Of a stretch of 64,000 nucleotides of DNA, positions 1 through 14,713 are shown piece by piece. The notes beneath the pieces are model-generated. The model was given only the letters and a program-made list of their open reading frames with translations, searched no databases and had not been told where the DNA came from. Origin of the DNA: Candidatus Wolfebacteria bacterium. Its GTDB lineage: Bacteria; Patescibacteriota; Minisyncoccia; Phycocordibacterales; EsbW-18. Positions within the stretch are counted from its first letter, which is position 1. The number at the start of each line of letters is the position of its first letter. The stretch spans positions 9,354 through 73,353 of the forward strand of contig JAKEFG010000015.1 in the NCBI GenBank assembly GCA_022616195.1. The letters run 5' to 3'. Both the position numbers and the translations under genes were made by a program.

Positions 1-8
1 GCTGGAGC

Positions 9-776
9 ATGGCGATGCTTATCATCATCTTTCCACTTTTTATTGTGCTCACTCGCATGGTGAACCAGAGTGTCCGACGGGAGCCTGCCAAAAAGGAGTT
101 GTGGATCAGACGCTGGCTTATCTACCTCACGCTTTTTATCGCAGGAGCGACGGTCGCTGTAGATCTTGTTGCTTTGGTAAACACCTTCCTTGGCGGGGAG
201 ATTACAGGGCGGTTTGCTGCCAAGGTGTTTGTGGTGTTTGTTGTTGCCCTCTCTGTGTTCGGCTACTATCTACTCTCCATTCGTGGTTATTGGGATACCC
301 GCGAGGCTACGTCAAAGCTCTTCGGGTGGGTTGTGGGGGTTGTTGCACTGGGTTCAATTATTGGAGGCTTCTTTATCATCGGTTCTCCCGCAACACAGCG
401 TGCGCTCCGTCTTGACCAGGAGCGCGTCTACAATCTCCAGAATATTCAGTGGCAGATTGTTGACTACTGGCAGAGCAAAGAAACGCTTCCGGCGGAACTC
501 GCATTGCTTGAGGATTCCATACGGGGATTCCGCGTGCCAGCTGACCCCGAGACAGGGGGACCGTATCGCTATGCGGTGACTGGCATGTATTCATTTGAGT
601 TGTGTGCGACATTTGTGCGCGCGAGTGCCGAAACACCCAAAGGAGTGCCGAGCACCCTACCGTACCGCGACGGAGGGCTGGACGAGAATTGGGAGCATGA
701 TGCGGGCGAGACATGCTTTACACGGACGATTGACCCGGAACTCTATCCACCTTATACCGAATCAGTAATCCGATAA
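9..776 (+). CDS. hypothetical multi-pass membrane protein; frame is open to the window edge, so the N-terminus may lie outside
   Basis: 255-aa ORF with at least four hydrophobic helices (IIIFPLFIVL, FIAGATVAVDLVALV, VFVVFVVALSVFGYYLL, GWVVGVVALGSIIGGFFII); no catalytic motif recognised. Confidence 0.5.
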   Translation: MAMLIIIFPLFIVLTRMVNQSVRREPAKKELWIRRWLIYLTLFIAGATVAVDLVALVNTFLGGEITGRFAAKVFVVFVVALSVFGYYLLSIRGYWDTREATSKLFGWVVGVVALGSIIGGFFIIGSPATQRALRLDQERVYNLQNIQWQIVDYWQSKETLPAELALLEDSIRGFRVPADPETGGPYRYAVTGMYSFELCATFVRASAETPKGVPSTLPYRDGGLDENWEHDAGETCFTRTIDPELYPPYTESVIR

Positions 777-857
777 CTAACGTACGATAAAAACATCGTC
801 CGCACTCATGCTACGTGAGGGCGGTTTGTTTCTGTGGTATAGTGTCATTCTACGGGG

Positions 858-3443
858 ATGGAACGCTATAACCACAAAGAAATAGAGAAGAGGTGGCAGA
901 AAAAGTGGAAAGAGCAAAAACTCTACGAAACGCCAGATACGGTGGAAGGGAAGGACAATTTTTACACGCTTGTGGAATTTCCGTATCCATCGGGTAATTT
1001 ACATGTTGGACATTGGTTTGCGTATATTGGTCCAGACATATTTGCACGCTTTATGCGTATGCAAGGAAAGAATGTACTTTTCCCGATCGGCTTTGATGCG
1101 TTTGGACTACCTGCTGAAAATGCTGCTATTAAGCGCGGTATTAATCCACGGGAGTGGACCTATTCGAACATCGCATACATGCGACAGCAGTTTGAAATGA
1201 TGGGAACCTCACTTGATTGGTCTCGAGAGATCATCTCGTGTGATCCCAGATATTATCGTTGGACACAGTGGCTCTTTCTGCAATTTTTCAAAAAAGGATT
1301 AGCATATCAAAAAGAAACGGAAGTGAACTGGTGTCCGTCGTGCAAGACGGTCTTGGCAAATGAGCAAGTGGTGACGGGTGTGTGTGAACGGTGTGGAACA
1401 GAAGTCGAAAAACGGCAGATGCTCCAATGGAATTTAAAAATCACCGACTATGCAGAGCGGCTCATTGATGATCTGGAAAAGCTCGATTGGCCAGAAGAAA
1501 TCAAACAAGCACAGCGGCATTGGATTGGTAGAAGTGAAGGTGCCCTCCTTACCTTTACTATCCAAGAACACAATGCGTCTGTAGAAATATTTACGACGCG
1601 TCCAGATACCTTGTTTGGTGCAACGTATCTGGTATTGGCTCCTGAACATACGCTCATTGAGTCCTTGAAAGATAAGATTACTAATTGGGATGAGGTGGAA
1701 GCGTATAGACAAACTGCACGGAAAAAAACAGATATTGAACGGACTGCTCTCGGAAAAGAAAAGACCGGAGTTGAGCTCCAGGGAATTACGGCACTCAATC
1801 CAGGCACGCAAGAGGAAATTTCCGTCTGGGTTGCTGATTATGTACTTTCTCACTATGGCACGGGCGCTATTATGGCGGTACCAGCACACGATGAGCGGGA
1901 TTTTGCGTTTGCACAGAAGTTTAACTTGGAAAAAGTTTGCGTTATCGAGCCGCGCTCTCTGGATGATTTTACCTTGCGCAAAATGCAGGGGGTGAGTGGG
2001 GAAGAAAAAATTACAGGTAGGGCTGTTGCATATTGGCCTGATGCCGGAGAGACACCGGAGCACGGTTTTAAGAGGGAGGTTGCCGCAATTCTTGCTGGAA
2101 AGTCCGTTTATGTCGGGGAAGGGACACTGGTGCACTCTGGAAAGTTTGATGGGATAACAACACAAGAGGCACGTGAGGCAATCACCAAAGCGGTTGGAGG
2201 CGAAATGAAAACAACCTACAAACTTCGCGACTGGACGGTGTCGCGACAGCGCTACTGGGGATGCCCGATTCCGGTCATTCACTGTGCAAAATGCGGTGTG
2301 GTACCCGTGCCGGAGCATGACCTACCGGTTGTGCTTCCCGAAATTGATGACTTCATACCGACAGGGAATGGTAAGTCGCCCTTAGCGAAAGTGGTGGATT
2401 GGGTGAATGTGAAATGCCCAGAATGTGGTGGAGATGCCGAGCGCGAGACCGACACCCTGGATACGTTTGTTGACTCGTCATGGTACTTTCTCCGCTACAC
2501 CGACCCGCACAACGACAAGGAGTTTGCATCGCGCGGGAAACAGGAGGCGTGGATGCCCGTTGGTTTCTATTCGGGTGGCGCGGAACACACGACCATGCAC
2601 CTTCTCTATTCCCGTTTCTTTCACAAGGTATTATTTGACCTCGGTTTGGTTGCCGACACGGAACCGTATGTTCGTAGAATGAATCGCGGACTCATCCTCG
2701 GTCCCGACGGCAACAAAATGAGCAAGTCAAAAGGAAACGTTATTGATCCCGATGATATGGTGGAGCGGCTCGGCGCGGATACCGTGCGGATGTATCTCGC
2801 GTTCATCGGTCCCTACAATGAAGTCGGCGCGTATCCGTGGAATCCGGACGGTGTTGTCGGTGTTCGACGGTTTCTTGAACGGGTGCATGTACTGGTTACA
2901 AAGATTGCAGAGGATAGGAAGAGACTGAAAGACGTCTCTGGCGGATCTGTTTTGATTCACAGAACTGTGAGGTTTGTAACTGAGGTTATCGGACGGCTCA
3001 AATTTAATACTGCCGTTGCACAACTCATGATTCAGTTTAATGGCGAGAATAGTGAACCTGATTGGCGAGGTAAACTTAATAACAAGGGAGAGTGGGAGAG
3101 TATGGAAGTAGACCTCATGGCCCTTAAGATGTTTTTAAAACTTCTTGCACCGTTCGCGCCGCACCTTGCGGAAGAATTGTGGTACCAACTGGGGAATACC
3201 ACCTCTGTCCATCTGGAGCCGTGGCCTGAGTACGACCCGACGCTCGTCGAGGAAGAACAGGTGACCATTGTGGTACAGGTGAACGGCAAGACGAGGGGAG
3301 AGTTCGAGGCAGCCCAAGATATTGATGAGACGGACGCGCGGGAGCGAGCACTTACTCTCCCGACGGTGGAAAAGTGGCTTGGGGGGAAGGAACCCAACAA
3401 AGTTGTCTATGTCCCCGGGCGGTTGGTAAATATCGTTGTCTAG
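858..3443 (+). CDS. leuS: leucyl-tRNA synthetase
   Basis: 861 aa; class I HIGH-type motif (PYPSGNLHVGHW), KMSKSKGNVIDP motif, CP1 editing region; ATG 14 nt downstream of TGgTATAGT extended -10 (835-843). Confidence 0.97.
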   Translation: MERYNHKEIEKRWQKKWKEQKLYETPDTVEGKDNFYTLVEFPYPSGNLHVGHWFAYIGPDIFARFMRMQGKNVLFPIGFDAFGLPAENAAIKRGINPREWTYSNIAYMRQQFEMMGTSLDWSREIISCDPRYYRWTQWLFLQFFKKGLAYQKETEVNWCPSCKTVLANEQVVTGVCERCGTEVEKRQMLQWNLKITDYAERLIDDLEKLDWPEEIKQAQRHWIGRSEGALLTFTIQEHNASVEIFTTRPDTLFGATYLVLAPEHTLIESLKDKITNWDEVEAYRQTARKKTDIERTALGKEKTGVELQGITALNPGTQEEISVWVADYVLSHYGTGAIMAVPAHDERDFAFAQKFNLEKVCVIEPRSLDDFTLRKMQGVSGEEKITGRAVAYWPDAGETPEHGFKREVAAILAGKSVYVGEGTLVHSGKFDGITTQEAREAITKAVGGEMKTTYKLRDWTVSRQRYWGCPIPVIHCAKCGVVPVPEHDLPVVLPEIDDFIPTGNGKSPLAKVVDWVNVKCPECGGDAERETDTLDTFVDSSWYFLRYTDPHNDKEFASRGKQEAWMPVGFYSGGAEHTTMHLLYSRFFHKVLFDLGLVADTEPYVRRMNRGLILGPDGNKMSKSKGNVIDPDDMVERLGADTVRMYLAFIGPYNEVGAYPWNPDGVVGVRRFLERVHVLVTKIAEDRKRLKDVSGGSVLIHRTVRFVTEVIGRLKFNTAVAQLMIQFNGENSEPDWRGKLNNKGEWESMEVDLMALKMFLKLLAPFAPHLAEELWYQLGNTTSVHLEPWPEYDPTLVEEEQVTIVVQVNGKTRGEFEAAQDIDETDARERALTLPTVEKWLGGKEPNKVVYVPGRLVNIVV

Positions 3444-3554
3444 AGGCGTTTCTGAGCTTGCCTTCTGCCATTTCTCAAGAAATGGTAGGGGGTTGACGGA
3501 GATAATGGTCGGTGCTAGAATGAGTGGCTGTGAGACAAGTACTACCTCTAAAAC

Positions 3555-3583
3555 TTGCACTTATTGCTCATTTGTGATATAGT
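3555..3583 (+). promoter_or_regulatory. sigma70-type promoter TTGCAC-17nt-TGaTATAGT; -10 ends 6 nt before ATG 3590 (leaderless mRNA implied); a second TTGACG-17-TAGAAT lies at ~3493-3521
   Basis: hexamers and spacing read directly from sequence. Confidence 0.5.
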
Positions 3584-3589
3584 GGTGCC

Positions 3590-4642
3590 ATGGCTACGAA
3601 AGCAAAATCGGAGAAAACGGTGAAATTGAACTTTGTCCCGAAACAGGTTGTCAAGCGCCTGCTTGCCGTGCTTCCTGATCGTGCTGTTGATGTCCTGACC
3701 CGTCGGTATGGACTCGGAAAGGACACCGGTCGTATGACGCTTGAAGCCATCGGTCAGATTTACGATATTACCCGAGAGCGCGTCAGACAGATCGAGAATT
3801 ACGCGCTCGGGGCCATCCGCAAGTCCGAAAGCTATGAGAAGGAAAGTAAGGCCATTGATGAGCTCGAGCGGCTCATCAACGCGATGGGGGTGGTTGTCCC
3901 GGAAGAATTTTTTCTCGATGAGGTTGCAAAGGACAAGAGCACCCAGAACTACATACACTTTCTGTTGGTGCTCGGTCACCCGTTCACTCGTTTCAAGGAA
4001 GACGAACATTTTACGCATCGCTGGCATATTGATGCAGATGTCGCCCGTGGTGTTGAGGAGGCGCTGAAGAACTTGTACGCGTCACTGCCGGACGAAGAGC
4101 TTCTGTCGGAGCCGGAGCTCATGACGAGATTTCTGTCACATCTCAAAGAGCTCGCGGACCAGTACCGCGACGAAGAAATTCTGAAACGCTGGCTTTCGCT
4201 CTCGAAGAAAATTGCCAAAAGCCCTCTGGGCGATTGGGGACGTGTTGAGTCAACTGCGGTGAGCCCCCGCGGCATTCGCGACTATGCGTATCTGGTGATT
4301 CTTCGGCACGGCTCACCGCTCCACTTCACCGAAGTGGCGAAACAAATCAGCAAGCTATTTGACCGGCGGGCACACACTGCAACCGCGCACAACGAGCTCA
4401 TAAAGGACCAACGGTTCGTGCTTGTCGGACGCGGGCTCTATGCACTCTCGGAGTGGGGATACATGCAAGGTGTCGTCAAAGACGTTATTGTCGAGATTCT
4501 CAAACAGCACGGTCCGCTGACCAAAGAGGAAATCATTGACCGGGTGCTCAAGGAACGCTACGTGAAGGGAAATACTATCGCGGTCAATCTGCAGGATCCG
4601 ATGTTTAAGAGGACAAAGGACGGGAAGTACGCGCTCGCGTAG
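3590..4642 (+). CDS. sigma-70 region-4-like HTH protein with ~280-aa uncharacterised C-terminal extension (not a complete sigma factor)
   Basis: N-terminal LLAVLPDRAVDVLTRRYGLG..TLEAIGQIYDITRERVRQIENYALGAIRK matches sigma70 region 4 / FliA-type HTH; regions 2 and 3 absent; remainder helical with no known motif. Confidence 0.8.
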   Translation: MATKAKSEKTVKLNFVPKQVVKRLLAVLPDRAVDVLTRRYGLGKDTGRMTLEAIGQIYDITRERVRQIENYALGAIRKSESYEKESKAIDELERLINAMGVVVPEEFFLDEVAKDKSTQNYIHFLLVLGHPFTRFKEDEHFTHRWHIDADVARGVEEALKNLYASLPDEELLSEPELMTRFLSHLKELADQYRDEEILKRWLSLSKKIAKSPLGDWGRVESTAVSPRGIRDYAYLVILRHGSPLHFTEVAKQISKLFDRRAHTATAHNELIKDQRFVLVGRGLYALSEWGYMQGVVKDVIVEILKQHGPLTKEEIIDRVLKERYVKGNTIAVNLQDPMFKRTKDGKYALA

Positions 4643-4784
4643 CAGCTCGGAACACTCTCCTTCAAAATTCCAGATGCCTGCATGCGCCGCTCTTGAGCGG
4701 CTGTTGGGCTCTGTTGTTAACAGAAACATACAGCTGGTATACATTCGCGGCAGAAACCAGTGGTGTGTTGGGAAGGAGGTTCAG

Positions 4785-5117
4785 ATGGAGAAAGAGGAAA
4801 TCCTACATCAAGCAAATGAGATCGTCGGCGAGCACGGTCTTGTCGCCGAGCTTCTTGAAGGGGTTCTATCTGTAGGTGTTGGTGGGGATGAGCGAACCTA
4901 CTTACCCGTGCTTTGTCTGCGGGGTTCGTTTCCAGGCGACGCTTCGAGAGATTTCTACCAAGCTCACGAACGAGTTACCTATCAACAGGGTGACATTCGA
5001 GCTTGCTCGTGCGTCCCAGTAACAGCGGAGTCACGTGTCTCGGGAAGTTATCGTACGGCGGCTTCCCCGTTTCTTTTCCTGCGAACCACTTACTACCCAC
5101 TACAAACTACGGACTGA
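4785..5117 (+). pseudogene. guaA: relic of GMP synthase C-terminal (dimerisation) domain; ATP-PPase and GATase domains absent
   Basis: GVLSVGVGGDERTYLPVLCLRGSFPGDASRDFYQAHERVTY aligns with GuaA C-terminal consensus ([39 protein letters not shown]); sequence after this diverges; strong SD AGGAGG 5 nt upstream and TGgTATACA -10 at ~4735-4743. Confidence 0.45.
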
Positions 5118-5134
5118 AGTGGTATCATGACAGC

Positions 5135-6430
5135 ATGGACATTCTCCGTGAACTTTTTACCGGTCCGGGTCTTAACCTCACTCTGAGCGGTCTGCGCCTG
5201 CTTGCGCTTGCCGCGCCGGTGTGGCTGCCGCTTGTGCTCGGTATCGGTTTTTGGAAGGTGTGGGTAGGGTATCGGCGAGCGGCGTTTATTAGTAGCATGG
5301 AGTGGGTATTTCTCGAGATTCTATTACCCCAGGAAATCACCCGCTCGCCGCTCGCCATGGAACTGGTGCTCAATACGTTCCAACAGAGCTTTGGCGAGGC
5401 GCATGCATATGAAAAGTACTGGAAAGGTGGGGTGCGTCCGTGGACGTCGCTTGAGCTTGTATCTGTTGAAGGATCCGTGCATTTCATCATCCGGATACAT
5501 AAGGGAAGCCGTGCACTCATCGAGTCACAGATTTACGCAGAATATCCCGATGTCGAGATACACGAGGTTCCTGACTATATCCACGGCATTGATTTCGACA
5601 ATGAACTCGTGCAGTTATGGGGCGCTGAGTTTGCGCTTACCAAAGCCGACCCGTATCCTATCAAAACCTACGTCGACTACGGTCTCGATCGCGATCCGAA
5701 AGAAGAGCAAAAGATAGATCCGATTGCGCCGGTCATTGAATGGCTCGGCTCGCTCGGTGCCGGCGAGCAGGCATGGATTCAAATACTCGTTCGTCAGCAT
5801 AAGGACGAAACGCCTAAAATGGTCGGACCGTTCCGAAAACTTGTTGAGTTCAAGGCAGACAAGAAAAAGCTCTCCGAAAAAATCAAGTTCTTCCCGACGA
5901 CTGATGCATGGAAGGATGCAGTAAAGAAAGAAATCGAGAAAGTCGTGAAGGAGCGGAAAATCCAGAGTAAGGATGAGGAAAGCGGTCCCGTGAAACTCAC
6001 GCGCATGGAAGAAGAGGTCATCACGGCGCTCGAGCGGAGCATCACCAAGGCGGCATTCGATGTTGGTATTCGCGGTATGTATGTCGCTGAAAAGGACAAG
6101 TTCAATCCGGCGAACATCGGCGGGCTCATCGGCTCGTTCAAGCAGTACAGCACGAATCACCTCAATGGCTTCAAGCCGGGTAAGACCACCGGCGTGAAAG
6201 CGCCCTGGCAGGACCCGTTCGGCACGCGGGTGCCGAGGCGCAAGCGCATCATGCTTGATGCCTACAAGCGCCGGAGTTATTTTCATTCGCCGTACAAGCG
6301 CAAGCCTTTCATTCTGAACACGGAAGAGCTCGCGACGATGTATCACTTCCCGGGACGCGTTTCTACGACGCCGACATTCAAGCGTCTTGAGGCACGAAAG
6401 GCGGAGCCACCAGCACACTTGCCGATGTAA
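5135..6430 (+). CDS. conserved hypothetical protein, N-terminal membrane anchor (LRLLALAAPVWLPLVLGIGFW), charged helical middle, C-terminal FILNTEELATMYHFPG motif
   Basis: long ORF with good coding character; start chosen at ATG 5135 because the upstream part of the ORF overlaps the guaA relic in another frame. Confidence 0.7.
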   Translation: MDILRELFTGPGLNLTLSGLRLLALAAPVWLPLVLGIGFWKVWVGYRRAAFISSMEWVFLEILLPQEITRSPLAMELVLNTFQQSFGEAHAYEKYWKGGVRPWTSLELVSVEGSVHFIIRIHKGSRALIESQIYAEYPDVEIHEVPDYIHGIDFDNELVQLWGAEFALTKADPYPIKTYVDYGLDRDPKEEQKIDPIAPVIEWLGSLGAGEQAWIQILVRQHKDETPKMVGPFRKLVEFKADKKKLSEKIKFFPTTDAWKDAVKKEIEKVVKERKIQSKDEESGPVKLTRMEEEVITALERSITKAAFDVGIRGMYVAEKDKFNPANIGGLIGSFKQYSTNHLNGFKPGKTTGVKAPWQDPFGTRVPRRKRIMLDAYKRRSYFHSPYKRKPFILNTEELATMYHFPGRVSTTPTFKRLEARKAEPPAHLPM

Positions 6431-6438
6431 TTCGACGT

Positions 6439-7407
6439 ATGACACGTCTTCTTGACTCGGTGAATACATTCCTGCCGCTTTCGTGTCTCACGGCGATTGC
6501 TGTTTTACTTGGGACAGCCTTGGTTCTTGTGGTGAGTCCGCCGCATGACTTTCCGAAAGGACAAGTAGTGGTGATCCCATATGGGGCAACACTCTCCGAG
6601 GTCGCTCGTGAGTTTGACTCACTTCAGTTGGTGAGATTTTCCACAGTGCTCAAATCGGTGATTCTGTTGCTCGGAGCATCTGAAACCATTCAGGCTGGTG
6701 ATTATATGTTTGCCGAACCGGTTGGTGTGATTACTTTGGGGCAGCGTATTGTGCGCGGAGACTTTGGATTGGATTACATCAAGGTACGTCTACCCGAGGG
6801 TGCTACACGGTATGTAATGGCAGATATTCTTACGGCAGCGCTACCGCACTTTGAGCGGGAACAATTTCTTGAGATAACAGAGGGATATGAAGGGTTTTTG
6901 TTTCCAGATACATACTTCTTTTCTCCTTCAGTAACTACCGAGGACGTTATGAACGCCCTGAGAGAGACTTTTGTTGAGAGGACAAGACCACTGAGAGATG
7001 AGGTGGCAGTGTCAGGGCATTCGTTTAGCGAGATTGTAACTATGGCATCGCTTGTAGAGCGTGAGGCACACGATCCGAGAGACCGGCGTCTTATCTCTGG
7101 AGTTTTGTGGAGACGTATTGCTATTGATATGCCGCTTCAGGTTGATGCGCCGTTCGTGGCACTCTTTGGTAAGGCATCTCATGAATTGACGCAAGACGAC
7201 CTTGCAACAACATCGCCGTACAACACGTATGTCCACAAGGGACTTCCACCAGAGCCTATTGGAAGCCCAGGACTTGATGCCATCCACGCCGCCCTTGACC
7301 CAACGGAATCGGACTACCTCTACTACCTTTCAGATACTAAAGGGGTGACCTATTACGCCGTCACATTTGAAGAGCACAAACGAAACAGAGAAATGTACCT
7401 CAACTAG
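6439..7407 (+). CDS. mltG: endolytic murein transglycosylase MltG/YceG
   Basis: N-terminal TM, YceG-like domain, C-terminal YNTYVHKGLPPEPIGSPG motif. Confidence 0.88.
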   Translation: MTRLLDSVNTFLPLSCLTAIAVLLGTALVLVVSPPHDFPKGQVVVIPYGATLSEVAREFDSLQLVRFSTVLKSVILLLGASETIQAGDYMFAEPVGVITLGQRIVRGDFGLDYIKVRLPEGATRYVMADILTAALPHFEREQFLEITEGYEGFLFPDTYFFSPSVTTEDVMNALRETFVERTRPLRDEVAVSGHSFSEIVTMASLVEREAHDPRDRRLISGVLWRRIAIDMPLQVDAPFVALFGKASHELTQDDLATTSPYNTYVHKGLPPEPIGSPGLDAIHAALDPTESDYLYYLSDTKGVTYYAVTFEEHKRNREMYLN

Positions 7408-7473
7408 GCCTTTATTGAGTAACCTTCGGTATGTTCGTACCCAGTGCTCTGCACATGATTTCCACAGAGCGGC

Positions 7474-7501
7474 TTGACTCTCAATTGCGAGGGAGTATAC
7501 T
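7474..7501 (+). promoter_or_regulatory. sigma70-type promoter TTGACT-16nt-TATACT upstream of the 23S-5S locus
   Basis: consensus-like hexamers. Confidence 0.5.
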
Positions 7502-7581
7502 TGGGGTATATATGAAAGCGACACAGAACTACATAGAGAGGCGGAGAACGTAGCTAGGCTATTTTGGTAGTGTGCCAAGTC

Positions 7582-7604
7582 TCCGCTCCGAGAGCGGATT
7601 TTTT
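7582..7604 (+). terminator. intrinsic-terminator-like hairpin (tccgctc-cga-gagcgga) followed by TTTTTT, ~75-95 nt downstream of the 7474 promoter
   Basis: 7-bp GC-rich stem plus T6 tract. Confidence 0.5.
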
Positions 7605-7614
7605 AGTTCTTGTT

Positions 7615-7650
7615 CCCGAGGTGCAACCTGTTCGCAGGTTGCACCTCGGG
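7615..7650 (+). other. perfect 16-bp stem hairpin with UUCG tetraloop (cccgaggtgcaacctg-ttcg-caggttgcacctcggg) in the 23S leader
   Basis: exact inverted repeat. Confidence 0.7.
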
Positions 7651-8330
7651 AGACGGAACGGAAAACACGATGGGCTGACTGGACGTTGACAAGCAAATAC
7701 ACGATAGAGAATCAAAGTCTCCGCTGACACGCGATGCGTACAGGCGGAGCAAGCAGGTAATTAAGTAAGGTATCAATGCTTGACATTGATACGCGGTTTT
7801 TAGATTTCCTAATAGGAGATCTGATAAGGGCGCACGGTGGATGCCTTGGCTCTAAACGGCGATGAAGGACGCGGCATGGCGGCGATATGCTTCGGGGAGG
7901 TGCCTAGCAACCTACGATCCGGAGATTTCCGAATGGGGAAACCCTGCGAGGTCAACCCTCGTGATCCTCTGATTCATCAGAGGAGGCACACCCGGGGAAG
8001 TGAAACATCTCAGTACCCGGAGGAACAGAGACTAATAAGTATTTCCTGAGTAGCGGCGAGCGAAATGGAAGAAGCCCAAACTCTGTGAAGCGAAAGCTAT
8101 GCAGAGGGTAGTAGGGTAACAACGTCATCTTTGATGAGGAGAGTTATAAAATGTTCTTCGTTAGCTGAATTCGTTGGAAAGCGAAGCCCGAGAGGGTAAT
8201 AGCCCCGTAATGCGAAAACGGAATGTCTCTCTTGTTGTTATTCCTGAGTACCCCGAGACATGAATAGCTCGGGGGAATCTGCCGGTACTAACCGGTAAGG
8301 CTAAATACGTTTAGAGACCGATAGTGAACC

Positions 8331-8361
<31 letters not shown>

Positions 8362-9636
8362 GGAGAGGGGGGTGAAATAGACCTGAAACCGTGCGTCTAC
8401 AAGGAGTCGAAGTGTCTTTTGGCACAACGGCGTGCCTATTGAAGAATGAGCCAACGAGTGTACGTGTACTGCTCGGCTAAGTCCTTTGTCGGACGAAGCC
8501 ACAGGGAAACCGAGTGTTAACAGCGCGAACTATAACTTTTTGCCGTGCGTGTGTTTCCTAGGACGCATGGTAAAGAGTTATCTGTAGTACATGTACGACC
8601 CGAAGCCGGGTGATCTACCCATGACCAGGGTGAACCTTACCGAAAGGTGGGGGGAGGCCCGAACCGATACGCGGTACAAAACGTTCGGATGAGTTGTGGG
8701 TCGGAGTGAAAAGCTAATCGAACCCGGTAATAGCTGGTTCTCTCCGAAATAGCTTTAGGGCTAGCGTTATGTGTTTCCCTCGGGGGTAGAGCACTGGAAG
8801 GAGTAGACAGGGCGAAAGCTCGCTTCTCCTATCAAACTCCGAATACCGAGGGTTAGAGCATAGCAGTTAGACTATGGGCGCTAAGGTCCATTGGTCAAAA
8901 GGGAAACAGCCCAGACCTCAAGCTAAGGTCCCTAAATCGACACTAAGTGCACGTAAGGAGGTGCAATTTCTCTGACACTGAGGAGGTTGGCTTAGAAGCA
9001 GCCATCCTTTAAAGAAAGCGTAACAGCTCACTCACTTAGAGATTGTGCGCCGCAAATAATCGGGGCTAAGTGTCGTACCGACGCTGAGGATTGTATCCCG
9101 TTTCGACGGGGTGCAGTGGTAGGAGAGCATTTCTATTGCTATGAAGCCCCTGTGTAAACCGGGGTGGAGCGATGGGAAGAGAGAATGTTGGCACAAGTAA
9201 CCGCAAGGCAGGTGCGATCCCTGCCCGCCGAAATCCCAAGGTTTCCTTGGCAATGTCAATCAGCCAAGGGTTAGTCGGTCCTAAGGAGATGGCGAAAGCC
9301 GTATCCGATGGACACACGGTTAATATTCCGTGACTTCCTGTTCATTCGATGGAGTAACGGAGGGTTGTACACGTTGCACATTATTGGATTTGTGTGCATG
9401 CTTTGAGGGAGTCAGTTAGGCAAATCCGGCTGACGCCACCCCGAGAAGTGTGCGGAATTCCGCTACGGCGGGAGAACAACGTGGAGCACGCTCCCGAGAA
9501 AAACTTCTAAGGTTCATGTCCAGGAAACCGTACCGCAAACCGACACAGGTGGGAAGGTCGAGAAGACCAAGGCGAACGGGTGAGAGATCCTCAAGGAACT
9601 CGGCAAAAAAGCGGCCGTAAGTTCGCAATAAGGCCT

Positions 9637-10028
9637 CCCAGCACTAGATTAAGTTCTTAAATGTAAACAGTAAGGAGAAAAAGCATGACAAATGAGCAGT
9701 ACCTAAAGGCAATCGGTGAAATGAAAAAAATAATACCGGCAGAAATTTTACCGGAGAGGATTGACACAAGCCGTAAATTCTCTGAAACTTCTGTAGAACA
9801 GAAGTTAAAACATTCTCTATATTTGTTAGAGAATGTCCCGACTTTTCTCGAGGTAGGAAAACGAGAAAAATCATCAAGACATTTAGCTTTTGCTCAGGCA
9901 ATCCTTTGGTCTTTGGACATGTTGGCAATCGACCAATTAATGGATTTCAACAGAAGATGATCATAATCGGGTGGTGATGATTATTTTTCACGCTCCCCGA
10001 ATTTTTAAGAATTTAATCTAGTGCTGGG
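9637..10028 (+). other. IVS-like insertion in a variable 23S helix (approx. E. coli helix 63 region), closed by a ~25-bp stem with one G-U; ~340 nt inserted
   Basis: cccagcactagattaagttcttaaa ... tttaagaatttaatctagtgctggg are reverse complements; flanking sequence continues into GACTGTTTACCAAAAACACAG (E. coli ~1770-1785). Confidence 0.65.
9685..9960 (+). CDS. 91-aa protein encoded inside the 23S IVS-like insertion (hypothetical, all-helical)
   Basis: ATG preceded by TAAGGAG 7 nt upstream; terminator-like hairpin plus T-run after the stop (~9955-9990). Confidence 0.55.
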   Translation: MTNEQYLKAIGEMKKIIPAEILPERIDTSRKFSETSVEQKLKHSLYLLENVPTFLEVGKREKSSRHLAFAQAILWSLDMLAIDQLMDFNRR

Positions 10029-10185
10029 CGCAGCGAAAGTATCCCTGGCGACTGTTTACCAAAAACACAGCTCCCTGCGAACTCGTAAGAGGATGTATAG
10101 GGGGTGACGCCTGACCAATGCCAGAAGGTCAAACGCGGAGGGTACATGTGACTTCGGTTATATGTGCTGGACTGCGTAAGCCCTG

Positions 10186-10224
<39 letters not shown>

Positions 10225-10883
10225 CAATTCCTTGTCTGGTAAGTTCAGACGTGCACGAATGGCGTAACGACTGGGGAACTGTCTCGAGGATTCGCCCGGT
10301 GAAAATGCAATGGGGGTGAAGATGCCCTCTACCTGCAGTTAGACGAAAAGACCCCAGGAGCTTTACTGTAACTTGATAGTGGGGGTACGTAGTATATGCG
10401 TAGCATAGGTGGGAGACGTTGAAGCGAAGGTCTCGGCTTTCGTAGAGTCGCCAGTGAAATACCACTCTTATATAGCGTGCTTTCTAACCTCGACGGCAAA
10501 AACGGCGGGGGACAGTATCTGGTAGGCAGTTTTAGTGGGGCGCTATCCTCCTAAAAAGTAACGGAGGAGCCTATTACGGTCAGCTAGGCGCGAATGGAAA
10601 CCGTGCCGATAGTGTAATGGCAGAAGCTGGCCTGACTGCAAGGGGTACATCCCGAGCAGGCGCGAAAGCGGAGCATAGTGAACCGAGAGTTCCCTTTAGA
10701 CGGGGCTCGAGATTAACGGATAAAAGTTACCCTGGGGATAACAGGCTGGTCCTGCCTAAGAGTCCATATCGACGGCAGGGTTCGGCACCTCGATGTCGGC
10801 TCACCGTATCCTGGCGCTGGAGAAGGTGCCAAGGGTTTGGCTGTTCGCCAATTAAAACGGTACGCGAGCTGGGTTCAGACCGT

Positions 10884-11360
10884 TCTGGGCATGAATCATA
10901 AGATATGAATCATGAATAGAGCAGTCTGAATCCGCTCATAACGACACAATCGTTTTTTCGTCTATGAAATAAGTCCCGATTTTGATGTATCAAAATCGAG
11001 GATCCCGACCAGAGCGTCGGGAATAGAATCAACCTAATCACGGCGGTCATGTGTAGTAATACGCATGTATCAAGCTGACCCCGATTTTGATGTATCAAAT
11101 CGAGGATCCCGACCAGAGCGTCGGGACTAATATCGGTGAATTTCTAGCTTCTAGGTAAGAAGAAGGAGGACACCGAGGGAATGGTTCGACTTTGCTCACC
11201 ACGAGCAAATAGAATTCGGCCCGTAGAGACTGAACGTCAGCGTTCCTTACTCATGTTTTGTGTTATACGCGACATGTGTTGGGAATATGCTACAGTCCGA
11301 TCCCGCCGGTAACGGCGGTGTGGCTAGACGCTAGGAGCTAGCGGCTAGTTGCTACAGTTG
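10884..11360 (+). mobile_element. ORF-less group-I-like intron inserted exactly after U2593 (E. coli numbering) of 23S
   Basis: exon reads GGGUUCAGACCGU | CGUGAGACAGG, matching E. coli G2581-U2593 | C2594-G2603; 5' exon ends in U and insert ends in G, as for group I introns; longest ORF <65 aa. Confidence 0.6.
10975..11126 (+). repeat. two direct copies (10975-11022 and 11080-11126) of a 48-bp element, each made of two hairpins (cgattttgat-gta-atcaaaatcg and tcccgac-cagagc-gtcggga), separated by 57 nt, inside the L2593 intron
   Basis: copies identical except one A in the A-run. Confidence 0.85.
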
Positions 11361-11423
11361 CGTGAGACAGGTTGGTCTCCTATCTACTGCAGGCGTTGAT
11401 TCTTGAGGGGAGCTGCTCCTAGT

Positions 11424-12251
11424 AAGTAATTGCTACTCTTCGGAGAGATCCGAAGTGACAATGTGGCTTATAACGGTGAAGCCTTCATATGATTACTGTC
11501 CGAGGATTGTGAATAGCTATTGGTCCAGCTATGGTATAATTCGCTTGCGGACCGTAATCCGCTGCAAGGTAATACCGTGGGAAGTCGATCTCAAACACAC
11601 ACAGCGTATATAGCGGGTTTTCTTGATGGTGACGGCAGTTTGATGCTGCAGATCAAAAAACGATCTGATACAAAACGAGGTATTCGTTTTATGGCAACAA
11701 TCTGTCTGTATCAAGATACTCGCCATGAGAGGCCGCTGTGCTGGATGCGTGAAGTTTTAGGCATTGGATATCTATCTCGACGCCGTGACGGCATTACAGA
11801 GTTACGTATCAATGGCTTTAGTCAGTGCAAAACAATTCTTGAACAACTAGTACCGTATATACGGTTTAAGAAGGTTCAAGTGAGTGCATTGCTCGAGGCA
11901 TGTACGGTACTGTGTACGACGCCGTTTTCAAAGCTCACGAAACAACAGCAGAAGTATTTGGTTGACCGTATTGTGATCATTCAACATGAAAACTATACAA
12001 CCAAGTCAAAAAAGCGTAGGGAAGAGCTGTATGCATGTTTGGATTTGACCCCGTAACGACTTGTTCATGTAGTTGCCACTACATGGCGGACTTGCTGATG
12101 TATTGAATCAGGAATGTATTCCTGACAATCTCAGTGGGTAACATGCCGCCACCCTCGTCCTCCATCTCATGGGGAACGGGTGAAGATATAGTCTATGCTC
12201 CTGGAAACAGGGGAGTAATCTTGTTTTTCAAAAGTGAAACAAGAGATACAT
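11424..12251 (+). mobile_element. 828-nt intron in the sarcin-ricin loop of 23S (after U2656), carrying a LAGLIDADG homing-endonuclease gene
   Basis: flanking exons join to GCUGCUCCUAGU|ACGAGAGGACCGGAGUGGAC, identical to the E. coli SRL sequence; 5' exon ends U and insert ends G. Confidence 0.75.
11520..12056 (+). CDS. single-motif LAGLIDADG homing endonuclease, I-CreI-like
   Basis: YIAGFLDGDGS motif; ~170 aa; GIGYLSRRRDG and LEQLVPYIRFKKVQVSALLEAC segments parallel I-CreI GVGYVRDRGS / FLTQLQPFLKLKQKQANLVLKII; ORF-track start is TTG 11520; in-frame GTG 11577 lies after a perfect TGgTATAAT (11531-11539). Confidence 0.85.
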   Translation: MVQLWYNSLADRNPLQGNTVGSRSQTHTAYIAGFLDGDGSLMLQIKKRSDTKRGIRFMATICLYQDTRHERPLCWMREVLGIGYLSRRRDGITELRINGFSQCKTILEQLVPYIRFKKVQVSALLEACTVLCTTPFSKLTKQQQKYLVDRIVIIQHENYTTKSKKRREELYACLDLTP

Positions 12252-12545
12252 GACGAGAGGACCGGAGTGGACTGACCGCTGGTGTACGAGCTGTCCTGCC
12301 AAGGGCATCGCTCGGTAGCTATGTCGGGACGGGATAACTTCTGAAAGCATCTAAGAAGGAAGCCCACCCCAAGATTAGGAATCATTAAGACCCGTGAGAG
12401 ATGATCACGTTGATAGGCACCAGGTGGAAGCACAGTAATGTGTTGAGCCGAGGTGTACTAATTCGTCGAGTATCTCCTATTAGGGAATCTGAAAATCGCT
12501 TAGTTCCTGCTTTTCTATCGTGTAGGCGACTGACTTTAAGTGTTG

Positions 12546-12656
12546 TGTGTTGGTGGTTCGACGCTGTGGAGACACCCGTTCTCATTCCGAACACGGCAGT
12601 TAAGCACAGTAGTGGCGATGGTACTCGCAAGGGGAGAGTAGCTAGCCGCCAACACA
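12546..12656 (+). rRNA. rrf: 5S ribosomal RNA
   Basis: CCGUUCUCAUUCCGAACACGG..GUAGUGGCGAUGGUACUCGCAAGGGGAGAGUAGCUAGCCGCC; ends pair as helix I. Confidence 0.85.
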
Positions 12657-12675
12657 CAGCACTTAACTTCTAAAA

Positions 12676-12703
12676 CCACCCGTGTGCGCACGGGCGTGTT
12701 TTG
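12676..12703 (+). terminator. hairpin cacccgtg-tgcg-cacgggcgtg followed by TTTTG, immediately after 5S
   Basis: GC-rich near-palindrome plus T-run. Confidence 0.55.
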
Positions 12704-12719
12704 CTACAATATAAGCACT

Positions 12720-13484
12720 ATGTCATGGGCAGGACGTCGCCGCGCACTTTACGTGAGTATCATAAGTGTCGTTGTCTTTGCGTTTTTCATCTGGGTTGGC
12801 TTTCGTATCTTCTATACTCCCCCGACGTGTTTTGATGGCAAGCGGAACGGTGTCGAGGAGGGGATTGATTGTGGCGGTGAGTGCGAACGTGTTTGTAGCT
12901 TTCAGGCGACACCGCCAATCGTATTGTGGAGTAGATTCTTCCAAATTGCACCTGGTGTCTACAACATTGTAGCACTTATTGAAAATCCAAATGTTGGCGT
13001 GGAGGCAAGAGACGTACCCTATGTATTCAAACTATATGATGCAAACGGGTTGTTGGTATACGAGCGTAAGGGGCAAATAACAATCCCCGCAGAGCACTCT
13101 TTTGTTGTTTTTGAAAGTGATATCATAGTTGGAGAGCGTATACCACAAAACAGCTTCTTTGAATTTACTGAGGTGCCGGACTGGCAGCGGCGTGAGAGGG
13201 AAGCCCCGACACTCCGTACAGGTGAACTGGTTTTAAGTAATGTATCAACCGCGCCGCGTCTTACCGCGATGCTCGAAAACACGATGTTTGCTGACGTAGA
13301 AAATATTGCTGTAGTTGCCGTGGTGTTTGACGAGAACGGGAATGCTCTTGCAACATCGCGCACAATTGTGGACCGCCTTGGAGGTGGCGAGCGGACAGCG
13401 CTTATCTTTACGTGGCAAACACCCTTTCCTGTGCCAGCTGCCAAGACAGTTCTCTATCCGGAGGTTCGGGAGAACGAGCGATGA
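12720..13484 (+). CDS. hypothetical N-terminally membrane-anchored protein (extracytoplasmic domain with a CGGECERVC cysteine cluster)
   Basis: ATG 12720 sits 9 nt after TGcTACAAT extended -10; the ORF-track GTG 12684 overlaps the 5S terminator. Confidence 0.7.
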   Translation: MSWAGRRRALYVSIISVVVFAFFIWVGFRIFYTPPTCFDGKRNGVEEGIDCGGECERVCSFQATPPIVLWSRFFQIAPGVYNIVALIENPNVGVEARDVPYVFKLYDANGLLVYERKGQITIPAEHSFVVFESDIIVGERIPQNSFFEFTEVPDWQRREREAPTLRTGELVLSNVSTAPRLTAMLENTMFADVENIAVVAVVFDENGNALATSRTIVDRLGGGERTALIFTWQTPFPVPAAKTVLYPEVRENER

Positions 13485-13579
13485 TAGCCCGACTTCACGG
13501 ACACATTGACCCCGTTAGAAATGTCACGTTAGTCCGGGTAAACACTGACGGAGTGCTCTTGTTTTATTGTAATTGATAT

Positions 13580-14713
13580 ATGAATTCTGCGTTTTCTCGC
13601 ATTTTTAACGGGGTTGATTGGGTTCTTTTTATTGCCACGCTGCCGCTCTGCGCTGCGGGTCTTGTTACAATACATTCGTTTGTCGGGACGGATACGTTTT
13701 TTACCCGTCAAGTGCTCTGGGTTCTTCTTGCTTTTGTGCTCTTCTTTGTGGCGAGTAGCATTGACTGGCGATTTCTCCGCAGGACAAATGTTGTTGTTGC
13801 ACTCTTTGTTGCGAGCATTGTTGCACTTCTTCTGCTTTTTTTGCTTGGCACGCGGACGTTGGGTGCAACATCTCGGTTTGATCTCGGACTTTTTTTCATT
13901 CAGCCGTCGGACCCGATAAAACTCGTACTTATCCTTGTGCTCGCAAAATATTTCTCACGCCGGCACGTTGAGATTGCTCACTATCGACATATTATTGTTT
14001 CCGGTTTCTATACGCTCATTCTCTTTCTGCTGTTATTCCTCCAGCCTGATTTTGGTTCGGCTGTCATTGTCTTCTTGGTGTGGTTTGGTATGGTGCTTGT
14101 CTCGGGTATTTCCAAGAAACACATTCTTCTCGTGTTTGTTACCGGTGCGTTCGTGTTTGGTGGGCTATGGGGCTTTGTGTTTCAGGATTACCAAAAAGAT
14201 CGCATTCGGACATTTCTCAATCCGCTCACGGATCTGCAGGGTGCTGGCTATAATGCTTTTCAGTCGACCATTGCCGTAGGTTCAGGACAGTTTCTCGGTA
14301 AGGGGGTCGGCTATGGCACGCAGTCGCGGCTTGAGTTTCTCCCAGAGTATGAGACGGACTTTATCTTTGCCGCATTCTCCGAGGAGTGGGGGTTTGTAGG
14401 CGTGGTCATTCTCTTTATGCTCTATGGGCTGGTGGTCTGGCGCATTGTCCGTGAGGCGGAGCATGGAGAAAGCAACTTTGAAACACTATTTGCACTCGGG
14501 CTCGCAATCCTTTTCGTGAGTCACTTTATAGTGCATGTTGGCATGAACATCGGACTACTCCCGGTGACCGGCATCACCATGCCCTTTATGAGTTACGGCG
14601 GCAGTCACCTGGCCATGGAGTTTGTAGGACTTGGCATCTTGATGGGCATGCGTGGGTATCGGCGTATCACGCAACCGCACAAACTGCGAGGCGAGTTTGT
14701 GGGTCCGCAGTAG
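13580..14713 (+). CDS. SEDS-family peptidoglycan polymerase (RodA/FtsW)
   Basis: 10-TM protein with GLLPVTGITMPFMSYGGSHL signature. Confidence 0.9.
   Translation: MNSAFSRIFNGVDWVLFIATLPLCAAGLVTIHSFVGTDTFFTRQVLWVLLAFVLFFVASSIDWRFLRRTNVVVALFVASIVALLLLFLLGTRTLGATSRFDLGLFFIQPSDPIKLVLILVLAKYFSRRHVEIAHYRHIIVSGFYTLILFLLLFLQPDFGSAVIVFLVWFGMVLVSGISKKHILLVFVTGAFVFGGLWGFVFQDYQKDRIRTFLNPLTDLQGAGYNAFQSTIAVGSGQFLGKGVGYGTQSRLEFLPEYETDFIFAAFSEEWGFVGVVILFMLYGLVVWRIVREAEHGESNFETLFALGLAILFVSHFIVHVGMNIGLLPVTGITMPFMSYGGSHLAMEFVGLGILMGMRGYRRITQPHKLRGEFVGPQ

Follow-up and report, generated by a model that had tools for sequence, protein, structure and literature searches.

[quoted passage not shown] LAGLIDADG_1 genes were reported at positions 1917, 1931, 1952, 2593, 2604 and 2657, the last of which is 23IS14, where CPR 23S genes often carry a group I/LAGLIDADG_1 insertion, and no known bacterium had previously been seen to carry the group I introns of 23IS9-11, 13 and 14 (PMC11270868). 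Related proteins were found at different sites, suggesting ectopic transposition, and one enzyme, I-ShaI from site 23IS7, was tested (PMC11270868). The supplement of that paper contains nothing on 23IS14, and no other report emerged when the literature was searched for the sarcin-ricin loop (SRL) together with group I introns.

Another described system is the Cr.LSU intron of the Chlamydomonas reinhardtii chloroplast 23S gene with its endonuclease I-CreI, together with the enzymes I-CvuI and I-MsoI. The features shared between these systems and the intron described here include the protein fold (TM 0.80-0.82), the active-site residues, a homodimer-type single-motif LAGLIDADG protein, a subgroup IA-type intron and a location in 23S domain V/VI. 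In contrast to Cr.LSU/I-CreI, the insertion site lies 63 nt downstream (U2656/A2657, not U2593/C2594), so that the DNA target is different, the protein is only 28% identical, and the intron resides in a bacterium, not in an organelle. The earlier bacterial 23S group I introns (in Thermotoga, Coxiella, Simkania and cyanobacteria, at L1917, L1931, L1951 and L2593) include none in the sarcin-ricin loop. An earlier note on the DNA analyzed here had called an SRL insertion site unusual, which is correct outside the CPR and incorrect within the CPR, where the site is a frequent one (PMC11270868).

The intron is located in a 64,000-nucleotide stretch of a Candidatus Wolfebacteria contig (hereafter the window). 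Judged from its sequence, it is a member of the published class 23IS14, which its insertion at 2656/2657 matches. The insertion point, a group-I-like RNA, a single-domain LAGLIDADG_1 ORF, a probable CPR/Patescibacteria host and co-occurrence with other domain V introns, e.g. at 2593, are all shared with that class, and no essential difference was found; the main text of PMC11270868 is without a helix map, the ORF-in-P6 arrangement and the start codon. The following features of the 23S locus were identified.

7814-12482, + strand: 23S rRNA gene including all inserts (start at 7814 by the Rfam LSU model; BLASTN reaches Ec2884 at 12462)
10884-11360, + strand: second group I intron, without an ORF, inserted at L2593 after U2593, with a final G
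11361-11423, + strand: exon between the two introns, 63 nt, Ec2594-2656, ending in GCUCCUAGU, the 5' half of helix 95/SRL
11424-12252, + strand: predicted group I intron, subgroup IA-like, between U2656 and A2657
11577-12056, + strand: predicted homing endonuclease gene in the P6 loop, 159 aa, GTG start, TAA stop at 12054-56
12253-12482, + strand: 3' exon from A2657 onward, starting with ACGAGAGGACCGG and comprising the remainder of the SRL and the 3' end of the 23S gene

With a probability of about 0.9, positions 11424-12252 would constitute a mobile group I intron of the subgroup IA type that interrupts the bulged-G motif of the SRL between U2656 and A2657. The boundaries were placed by BLASTN comparison of the E. 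coli 23S sequence (taken from locus L001) with the window, which gave three collinear blocks at the 3' end of the 23S gene: Ec1770-2593 at 10048-10883, Ec2594-2657 at 11361-11424 and Ec2657-2884 at 12253-12462. With splice sites marked by slashes, the window reads ...GCTCCTAGT(11423)/AAGTAATT...ACATG(12252)/ACGAGAGGACCGG, and the longer reading across both sites is GCTCCTAGT(11423)/AAGTAATTGCTACT...GAGATACATG(12252)/ACGAGAGGACCGGAGTG. In the E. coli copy, T2656, A2657 and A2660 sit within CCTAGTACGAGAGGACCGG, which places the insert between U2656 and A2657, inside the sarcin-ricin loop. Joining of the exons around this 829-nt insert restores CCUAGU/ACGAGAGGACCGG, so that the junction after U2656 claimed in the earlier note was borne out by both the sequence and the E. 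coli comparison. One base at the boundary is ambiguous (A11424 or A12253), and the ambiguity was resolved by the group I rule of a U before the intron and a G at its end, and also by the intron of a relative, L070, which begins with G (CCTAGT/gaag...). U11423 and G12252 are the U and G that the note had expected at the end of the 5' exon and of the insert, respectively; the span it gave, 11424-12251, has the right start and stops one base short of the true end. A terminal G precedes ACGAGAGG in all relatives examined. The ligated exon junction is predicted to be GCUCCUAGU-ACGAGAGGACC, i.e. CCUAGU-ACGAGAGG.

Rfam models were rejected as a means of placing the intron boundaries, since the group I match was sub-threshold and the LSU model produced a forced full-length alignment (7814-10965) that falsely ends at 10965. 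The true 3' end of the 23S gene lies near 12482, and a 5S gene was detected by Rfam at 12549-12654. No 16S rRNA gene adjoins the 23S-5S pair (window positions 1-7813 and 12655-14713). A YceG/MltG-like gene is located upstream of the 23S gene (6439-7407) and an FtsW/RodA-family gene downstream (13580-14713); an FtsW/RodA-family gene is likewise found downstream of the 23S-5S genes in locus L007. A near-perfect hairpin of about 35 bp, located at 7596-7668 between yceG and the 5' end of the 23S gene, surfaced only as spurious microRNA-family matches; it may serve as a terminator or as a stem for rRNA processing. The same 23S gene contains a third insert, at 9637-10028 between Ec1704 and Ec1770, with 25-nt inverted-repeat arms that are 96% complementary. 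This insert encloses a 91-aa ORF (9685-9960) with a good ribosome-binding site and no Pfam match, and it resembles an intervening sequence of the RNase III type that carries a passenger gene.

The earlier note had proposed that the insert in the SRL is a group I intron, and this proposal was supported by core helices with covariation, by the U·G wobble at the 5' splice site and by the terminal G. The check that it had suggested, the Rfam group I model (RF00028), was not passed: the score was only 21.3 bits, where the gathering score is 50 (E 0.009, search space 1.4 kb), and the alignment was convincing only at the S element GAAGAUAUAGUCU and at P9. A helix map was drawn from six ORF-less introns aligned with the window intron and from an alignment of 41 ORF-trimmed introns. 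The ORF-less relatives indicate a ribozyme of 296-354 nt. In the alignment of 41 introns, 96.3% of 2173 pair cells were standard pairs, compared with 34-48% when the partners were slid by 1-3 columns as a control; compensatory changes were present in 27 of the 53 pairs, and none of 500 shuffles attained any of the pairing measures. The compensatory changes were located in P2, P3, P5, P8, P9.0 and P9, and P4, P6 and P7 were invariant. The core P3-P8 was recovered with its P3/P7 pseudoknot and with the P, Q, R and S elements. The predicted elements are as follows, all on the + strand.

11420-11435, +: P1 hairpin, exon UAGU plus intron AA (11420-11425) paired with the internal guide UUGCUA (11430-11435), L1 being GUAA
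11438-11455, +: P2 hairpin CUUCGGA-GAGA-UCCGAAG with a GNRA loop, compensatory changes in 7 of 7 pairs
11463-11467, +: P3 5' strand GUGGC, pairing with GCCGC at 12145-12149, 3 of 5 pairs covarying
11473-11478, +: P4 5' strand ACGGUG within the P element AAUAACGGUGAAG, pairing with UACCGU at 11573-11578, invariant
11481-11570, +: P5, GCCUU (11481-85) paired with AAGGU (11566-70), enclosing an 80-nt extension (11486-11565)
11579-11586, +: P6/P6a 5' strands GGG-AA-GUC, pairing with GAC-CCC at 12047-12052, kept in the ORF-less introns of 296-354 nt
12058-12061, +: P7 5' strand GACU, in the R element CGUAACGACU, pairing with AGUC at 12190-12193, invariant in 41 of 41
12062-12144, +: P7.1 and P7.2, two hairpins predicted between P7 and the P3 3' strand by minimum free energy only
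12150-12182, +: P8 hairpin CACCC...GGGUG, 4 of 5 pairs covarying
12183-12193, +: J8/7 (AAGAUAU, 12183-89) and P7 3' strand, together the S element AAGAUAUAGUC, invariant
12195-12252 region, +: P9.0, AUG (12195-97) paired with CAU (12249-51), covarying and holding the terminal G12252
12198-12213, +: P9 hairpin with a GAAA loop, covarying
12219-12244, +: P9.1, an extra hairpin present in the window intron only

The wobble at the 5' splice site is formed by U11423 and G11432, and U·G occupies this position in 40 of the 41 aligned introns, whose P1 extensions covary. P1 uses just four exon bases, and no convincing P10 was found. The P4 3' strand (11573-11578) belongs to the Q element AAUACCGUGGGAAG, and the P5 extension contains both TTG 11520 and the box TGGTATAAT at 11532-11540. 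The P7 5' strand and the P3 3' strand are separated by 83 nt, in which the two hairpins come from energy prediction only; the placement of the P3 3' strand has covariation support. Helices at this position are a hallmark of subgroup IA. During splicing, the pre-rRNA would fold, guanosine bound in P7 would attack after U2656, and the terminal G12252 would then enter the same P7 site for exon ligation. Ligation would rebuild AGUACGAGAGGACC, which is needed by the ribosome for elongation-factor GTPase activation.

The open frame within the intron (11520-12056) comprises 178 aa when read from TTG 11520, which the earlier note had taken as the first in-frame start while hinting at an internal one. 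Most of the top 120 homologues (of 2513) were 159-160 aa long, covering 89% of the 178-aa frame, and 35 of 45 related introns had no in-frame start upstream of the conserved GTG. These homologue lengths and missing upstream starts ruled out TTG 11520 and assigned the gene to 11577-12056 (159 aa), so that it was the internal start, GTG 11577, that was upheld. The sole Shine-Dalgarno-like sequence before the GTG is AAGG (11566-69), located eight bases upstream in the P5 3' strand. The GTG itself overlaps the junction of the P4 3' strand and P6, and the last codons, UUG ACC CCG UAA, overlap P6a, P6 and J6/7. Because the ORF-less introns keep exactly these sequences, the two ends of the gene are part of the ribozyme core, and with the Shine-Dalgarno-like sequence, start and stop all located in core helices, translation and folding may compete.

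Both sequence and structural comparisons were consistent with the view of the earlier note that the protein is a single-motif LAGLIDADG protein paralleling I-CreI over its full length. The 159-aa protein consists of a single Pfam LAGLIDADG_1 domain (PF00961, 40.1 bits against a cutoff of 23.1), and its PDB sequence matches were I-CvuI (9e-15), I-MsoI (about 1e-12) and I-CreI (about 1e-9). The identity to I-CreI was 28% in an alignment over 151 residues. In this alignment, D19, Q46 and K98, which are invariant in 25 family members, stand opposite D20, Q47 and K98 of I-CreI, the catalytic Asp of the motif and the active-site Gln and Lys. The AlphaFold model (pLDDT 89.9) was superimposed by Foldseek on I-CvuI, I-CreI and I-MsoI over 150-157 columns, and the alpha-beta-beta-alpha-beta-beta-alpha core with C-terminal helices was present. 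The modeled protein has the I-CvuI/I-CreI/I-MsoI fold and an intact active site.

The protein translated from GTG 11577 would dimerize and cut intron-less SRL DNA around CTAGT/ACGAGAGGACCG, with the 4-nt 3' overhangs expected of an I-CreI-type enzyme, and repair from an intron-bearing copy would spread the intron. The predicted 60-bp spliced target is CGTTGATTCTTGAGGGGAGCTGCTCCTAGT/ACGAGAGGACCGGAGTGGACTGACCGCTGG. Among the intron-bearing alleles the exon sequence was conserved from -5 to +12, CTAGT/ACGAGAGGACCG, and variable farther upstream. A scan of the spliced target for two-fold symmetry gave the best center at Ec2657/2658, with 5/9 positions, barely above other centers; the I-CreI site scores 7, and the low value is odd for a homodimer.

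Database searching gave 2513 relatives of the ORF protein at E <= 1e-5. The best 120 of these 2513 were 60-69% identical, and the named ones were Nomurabacteria or Patescibacteria. In seven of seven genomic contexts of three homologues, the 23S sequence resumed at Ec2657 directly after the intron, and locus L006 carries the SRL intron as the only intron in that region. One genome per GTDB species was also scanned with the pattern ATAGTC-N(18-48)-GACGAGAGGAC, which was too loose to serve as a species census, since about half of the 120 stretches listed were chance matches in protein-coding DNA. The true 23S matches placed the same intron in at least about 60 species-representative genomes, in line with the suggestion of the earlier note that homologous insertions be sought in other CPR 23S genes. 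Hosts among the matches listed included many Paceibacteria/Parcubacteria lineages, Daviesbacteria and MAGs labeled Saccharibacteria. Gammaproteobacteria/Pseudomonadales labels on a few contigs were distrusted, the identity to E. coli 23S domains IV-V being about 70-72%. The 23S sequence closest to that of the window among the fetched loci was L027, at 88% over domains IV-V.

Intron lengths among the matches listed ranged from 296 to 1064 nt and formed ORF-less (296-354 nt), intermediate (421-636 nt) and full (about 760-890 nt) groups. A homing cycle, in which an element is gained, decays and is lost, would be expected to produce this range of full, decaying and ORF-less copies at a single site across many Patescibacteria. 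A divergent sub-lineage of SRL introns (L025, L062, L086, L099 and L120) has a different P9 sequence, and its nucleases scored 88-127 bits against the window protein, compared with 150-232 bits in the main group. Many intron-bearing MAGs, among them L020, L027, L039 and L065, are labeled 'Candidatus Saccharibacteria'. Saccharibacteria were reported to be almost free of rRNA introns (PMC11270868), a conflict that indicates either unreliable labels or an intron more widespread than reported.

Three other explanations were weighed. The insert might be an intervening sequence or expansion segment that stays in the mature rRNA or is removed by RNase III with the flanking pieces left unjoined, so that the 23S rRNA is in fragments; the intervening-sequence-like insert at 9637-10028 in the same gene, with its 25-nt inverted-repeat arms, and the sub-threshold Rfam group I score speak for it. 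No long inverted repeats flank 11424-12252, however, and the complete, strongly covarying group I core has a P1 and a P9.0 that define both splice sites. Furthermore, the bulged-G motif of the SRL is universally conserved, and it would be lost if the chain were broken, or an 829-nt insertion kept, between U2656 and A2657, which makes this explanation extremely improbable. Alternatively, the ribozyme may splice and the protein may no longer be a homing endonuclease, the gene being in decay or encoding a maturase and the intron being an immobile resident. Frequent loss of the gene, as seen in the intermediate-length and ORF-less versions, and the weak two-fold symmetry of the predicted target are compatible with this explanation. 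The window gene, on the other hand, is full length at the modal 159 aa of the family, its structural model is confident, and homologues of just 62-69% identity share the active-site D, Q and K together with 56 further columns that never vary; the I-CreI lineage is not known to have maturase activity. We therefore consider an immobile intron very unlikely, and a splicing intron with a homing endonuclease is the preferred reading.

The remaining explanation concerns the expression of the gene, which might be transcribed from its own internal extended -10 promoter rather than from the precursor or the excised intron. The earlier note had hinted at such a promoter on the basis of a perfect extended -10 box at 11531-11539. 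The box, TGGTATAAT, is indeed present as a perfect TGnTATAAT, one base further on at 11532-11540 and 36 nt upstream of the GTG, and 17 of 32 ORF-containing introns have TAnAAT 34-38 nt ahead of the GTG (the extended form in 10 of 32). The other 15 ORF-containing introns are without the motif, while it is present in three of eight ORF-less introns (the extended form in two of eight). The box is base-paired in the predicted fold of the P5 extension, a promoter scan of 11400-12300 gave no -35/-10 promoter and left TGGTATAAT without a -35 partner, and the intron already lies within a highly transcribed rRNA operon. An internal promoter is unlikely on these grounds, and the hint was not sustained; a promoter role for TGGTATAAT is not supported, and the box behaves like a partly conserved RNA element, so far as its distribution and predicted fold can tell.

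The relationship of the SRL intron to the introns at L2593, the I-CreI site, was also analyzed. The earlier note had stated that L2593 is occupied in this gene by a different, ORF-less intron, and a group I intron without an ORF was confirmed there (10884-11360). Within this L2593 intron a segment of about 56 nt is duplicated (10975-11030 and 11080-11134, at a spacing of 104-105 nt), and the apparent guide GCGGU (about 11043-47) lies between the two copies; a guide at this position would be separated from the 5' splice site by roughly 160 nt. When the ORFs of 69 oriented 23S loci were searched with the window protein, the scores by insertion site were as follows.

L2656 (same site): 150-232 bits (divergent sub-lineage 88-127)
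L2593: 54-65 bits
near 2533: 30-46 bits
L1917: 41-44 bits
L1931, L1951 and L2604: 22 bits or less

The nearest relatives outside the protein's own family were thus the L2593 enzymes, and its three best structural relatives are likewise encoded in L2593 introns. Locus L048 carries an endonuclease-bearing L2593 intron that reads AAUACCGAGGGAAGUC[ORF]UUGACCCCGUAGAGACU, with the same ORF-in-L6 layout, its stop codon placed in J6/7 and an identical C-terminal LTP, which points to whole introns, rather than just their genes, being related. Two motifs of the core, ACCGNGGGAA and CCCYGUARNGACU, were rejected as a marker of L2593 kinship, since introns at L1951 and at sites near 2500 have them too, and their presence at other CPR sites means that the direction and mode of movement are matters we can only infer. 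The idea raised in the earlier note, of relocation between introns or independent invasions, was borne out in part, in that the protein scores and the L048 layout support kinship with L2593. A tentative and rather doubtful proposal with two linked parts is that the SRL intron is an offshoot of the L2593 lineage that moved as a whole unit 63 nt downstream, with its guide and nuclease re-specified, and that its translation and folding are mutually exclusive. If the second part is true, the signals in P5, P4/P6 and J6/7 would constitute a built-in homing/splicing switch.

In conclusion, the finding is correct and ordinary for CPR/Patescibacteria, and it concerns an already-described class, to which this study adds a helix-level map, a corrected gene start and gene ends embedded in the ribozyme core. 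Introns of this type cause standard rRNA annotation to shorten the 23S gene, and automatic annotation would call the nuclease a free-standing gene. The predicted target sequence of the nuclease is conserved in E. coli 23S and is generally regarded as universally conserved; a nuclease that would recognize such a sequence could interest meganuclease engineers. For a working ribosome, the SRL intron must be removed precisely, and its presence shows the tolerance of CPR bacteria for mobile elements in essential rRNA sites.
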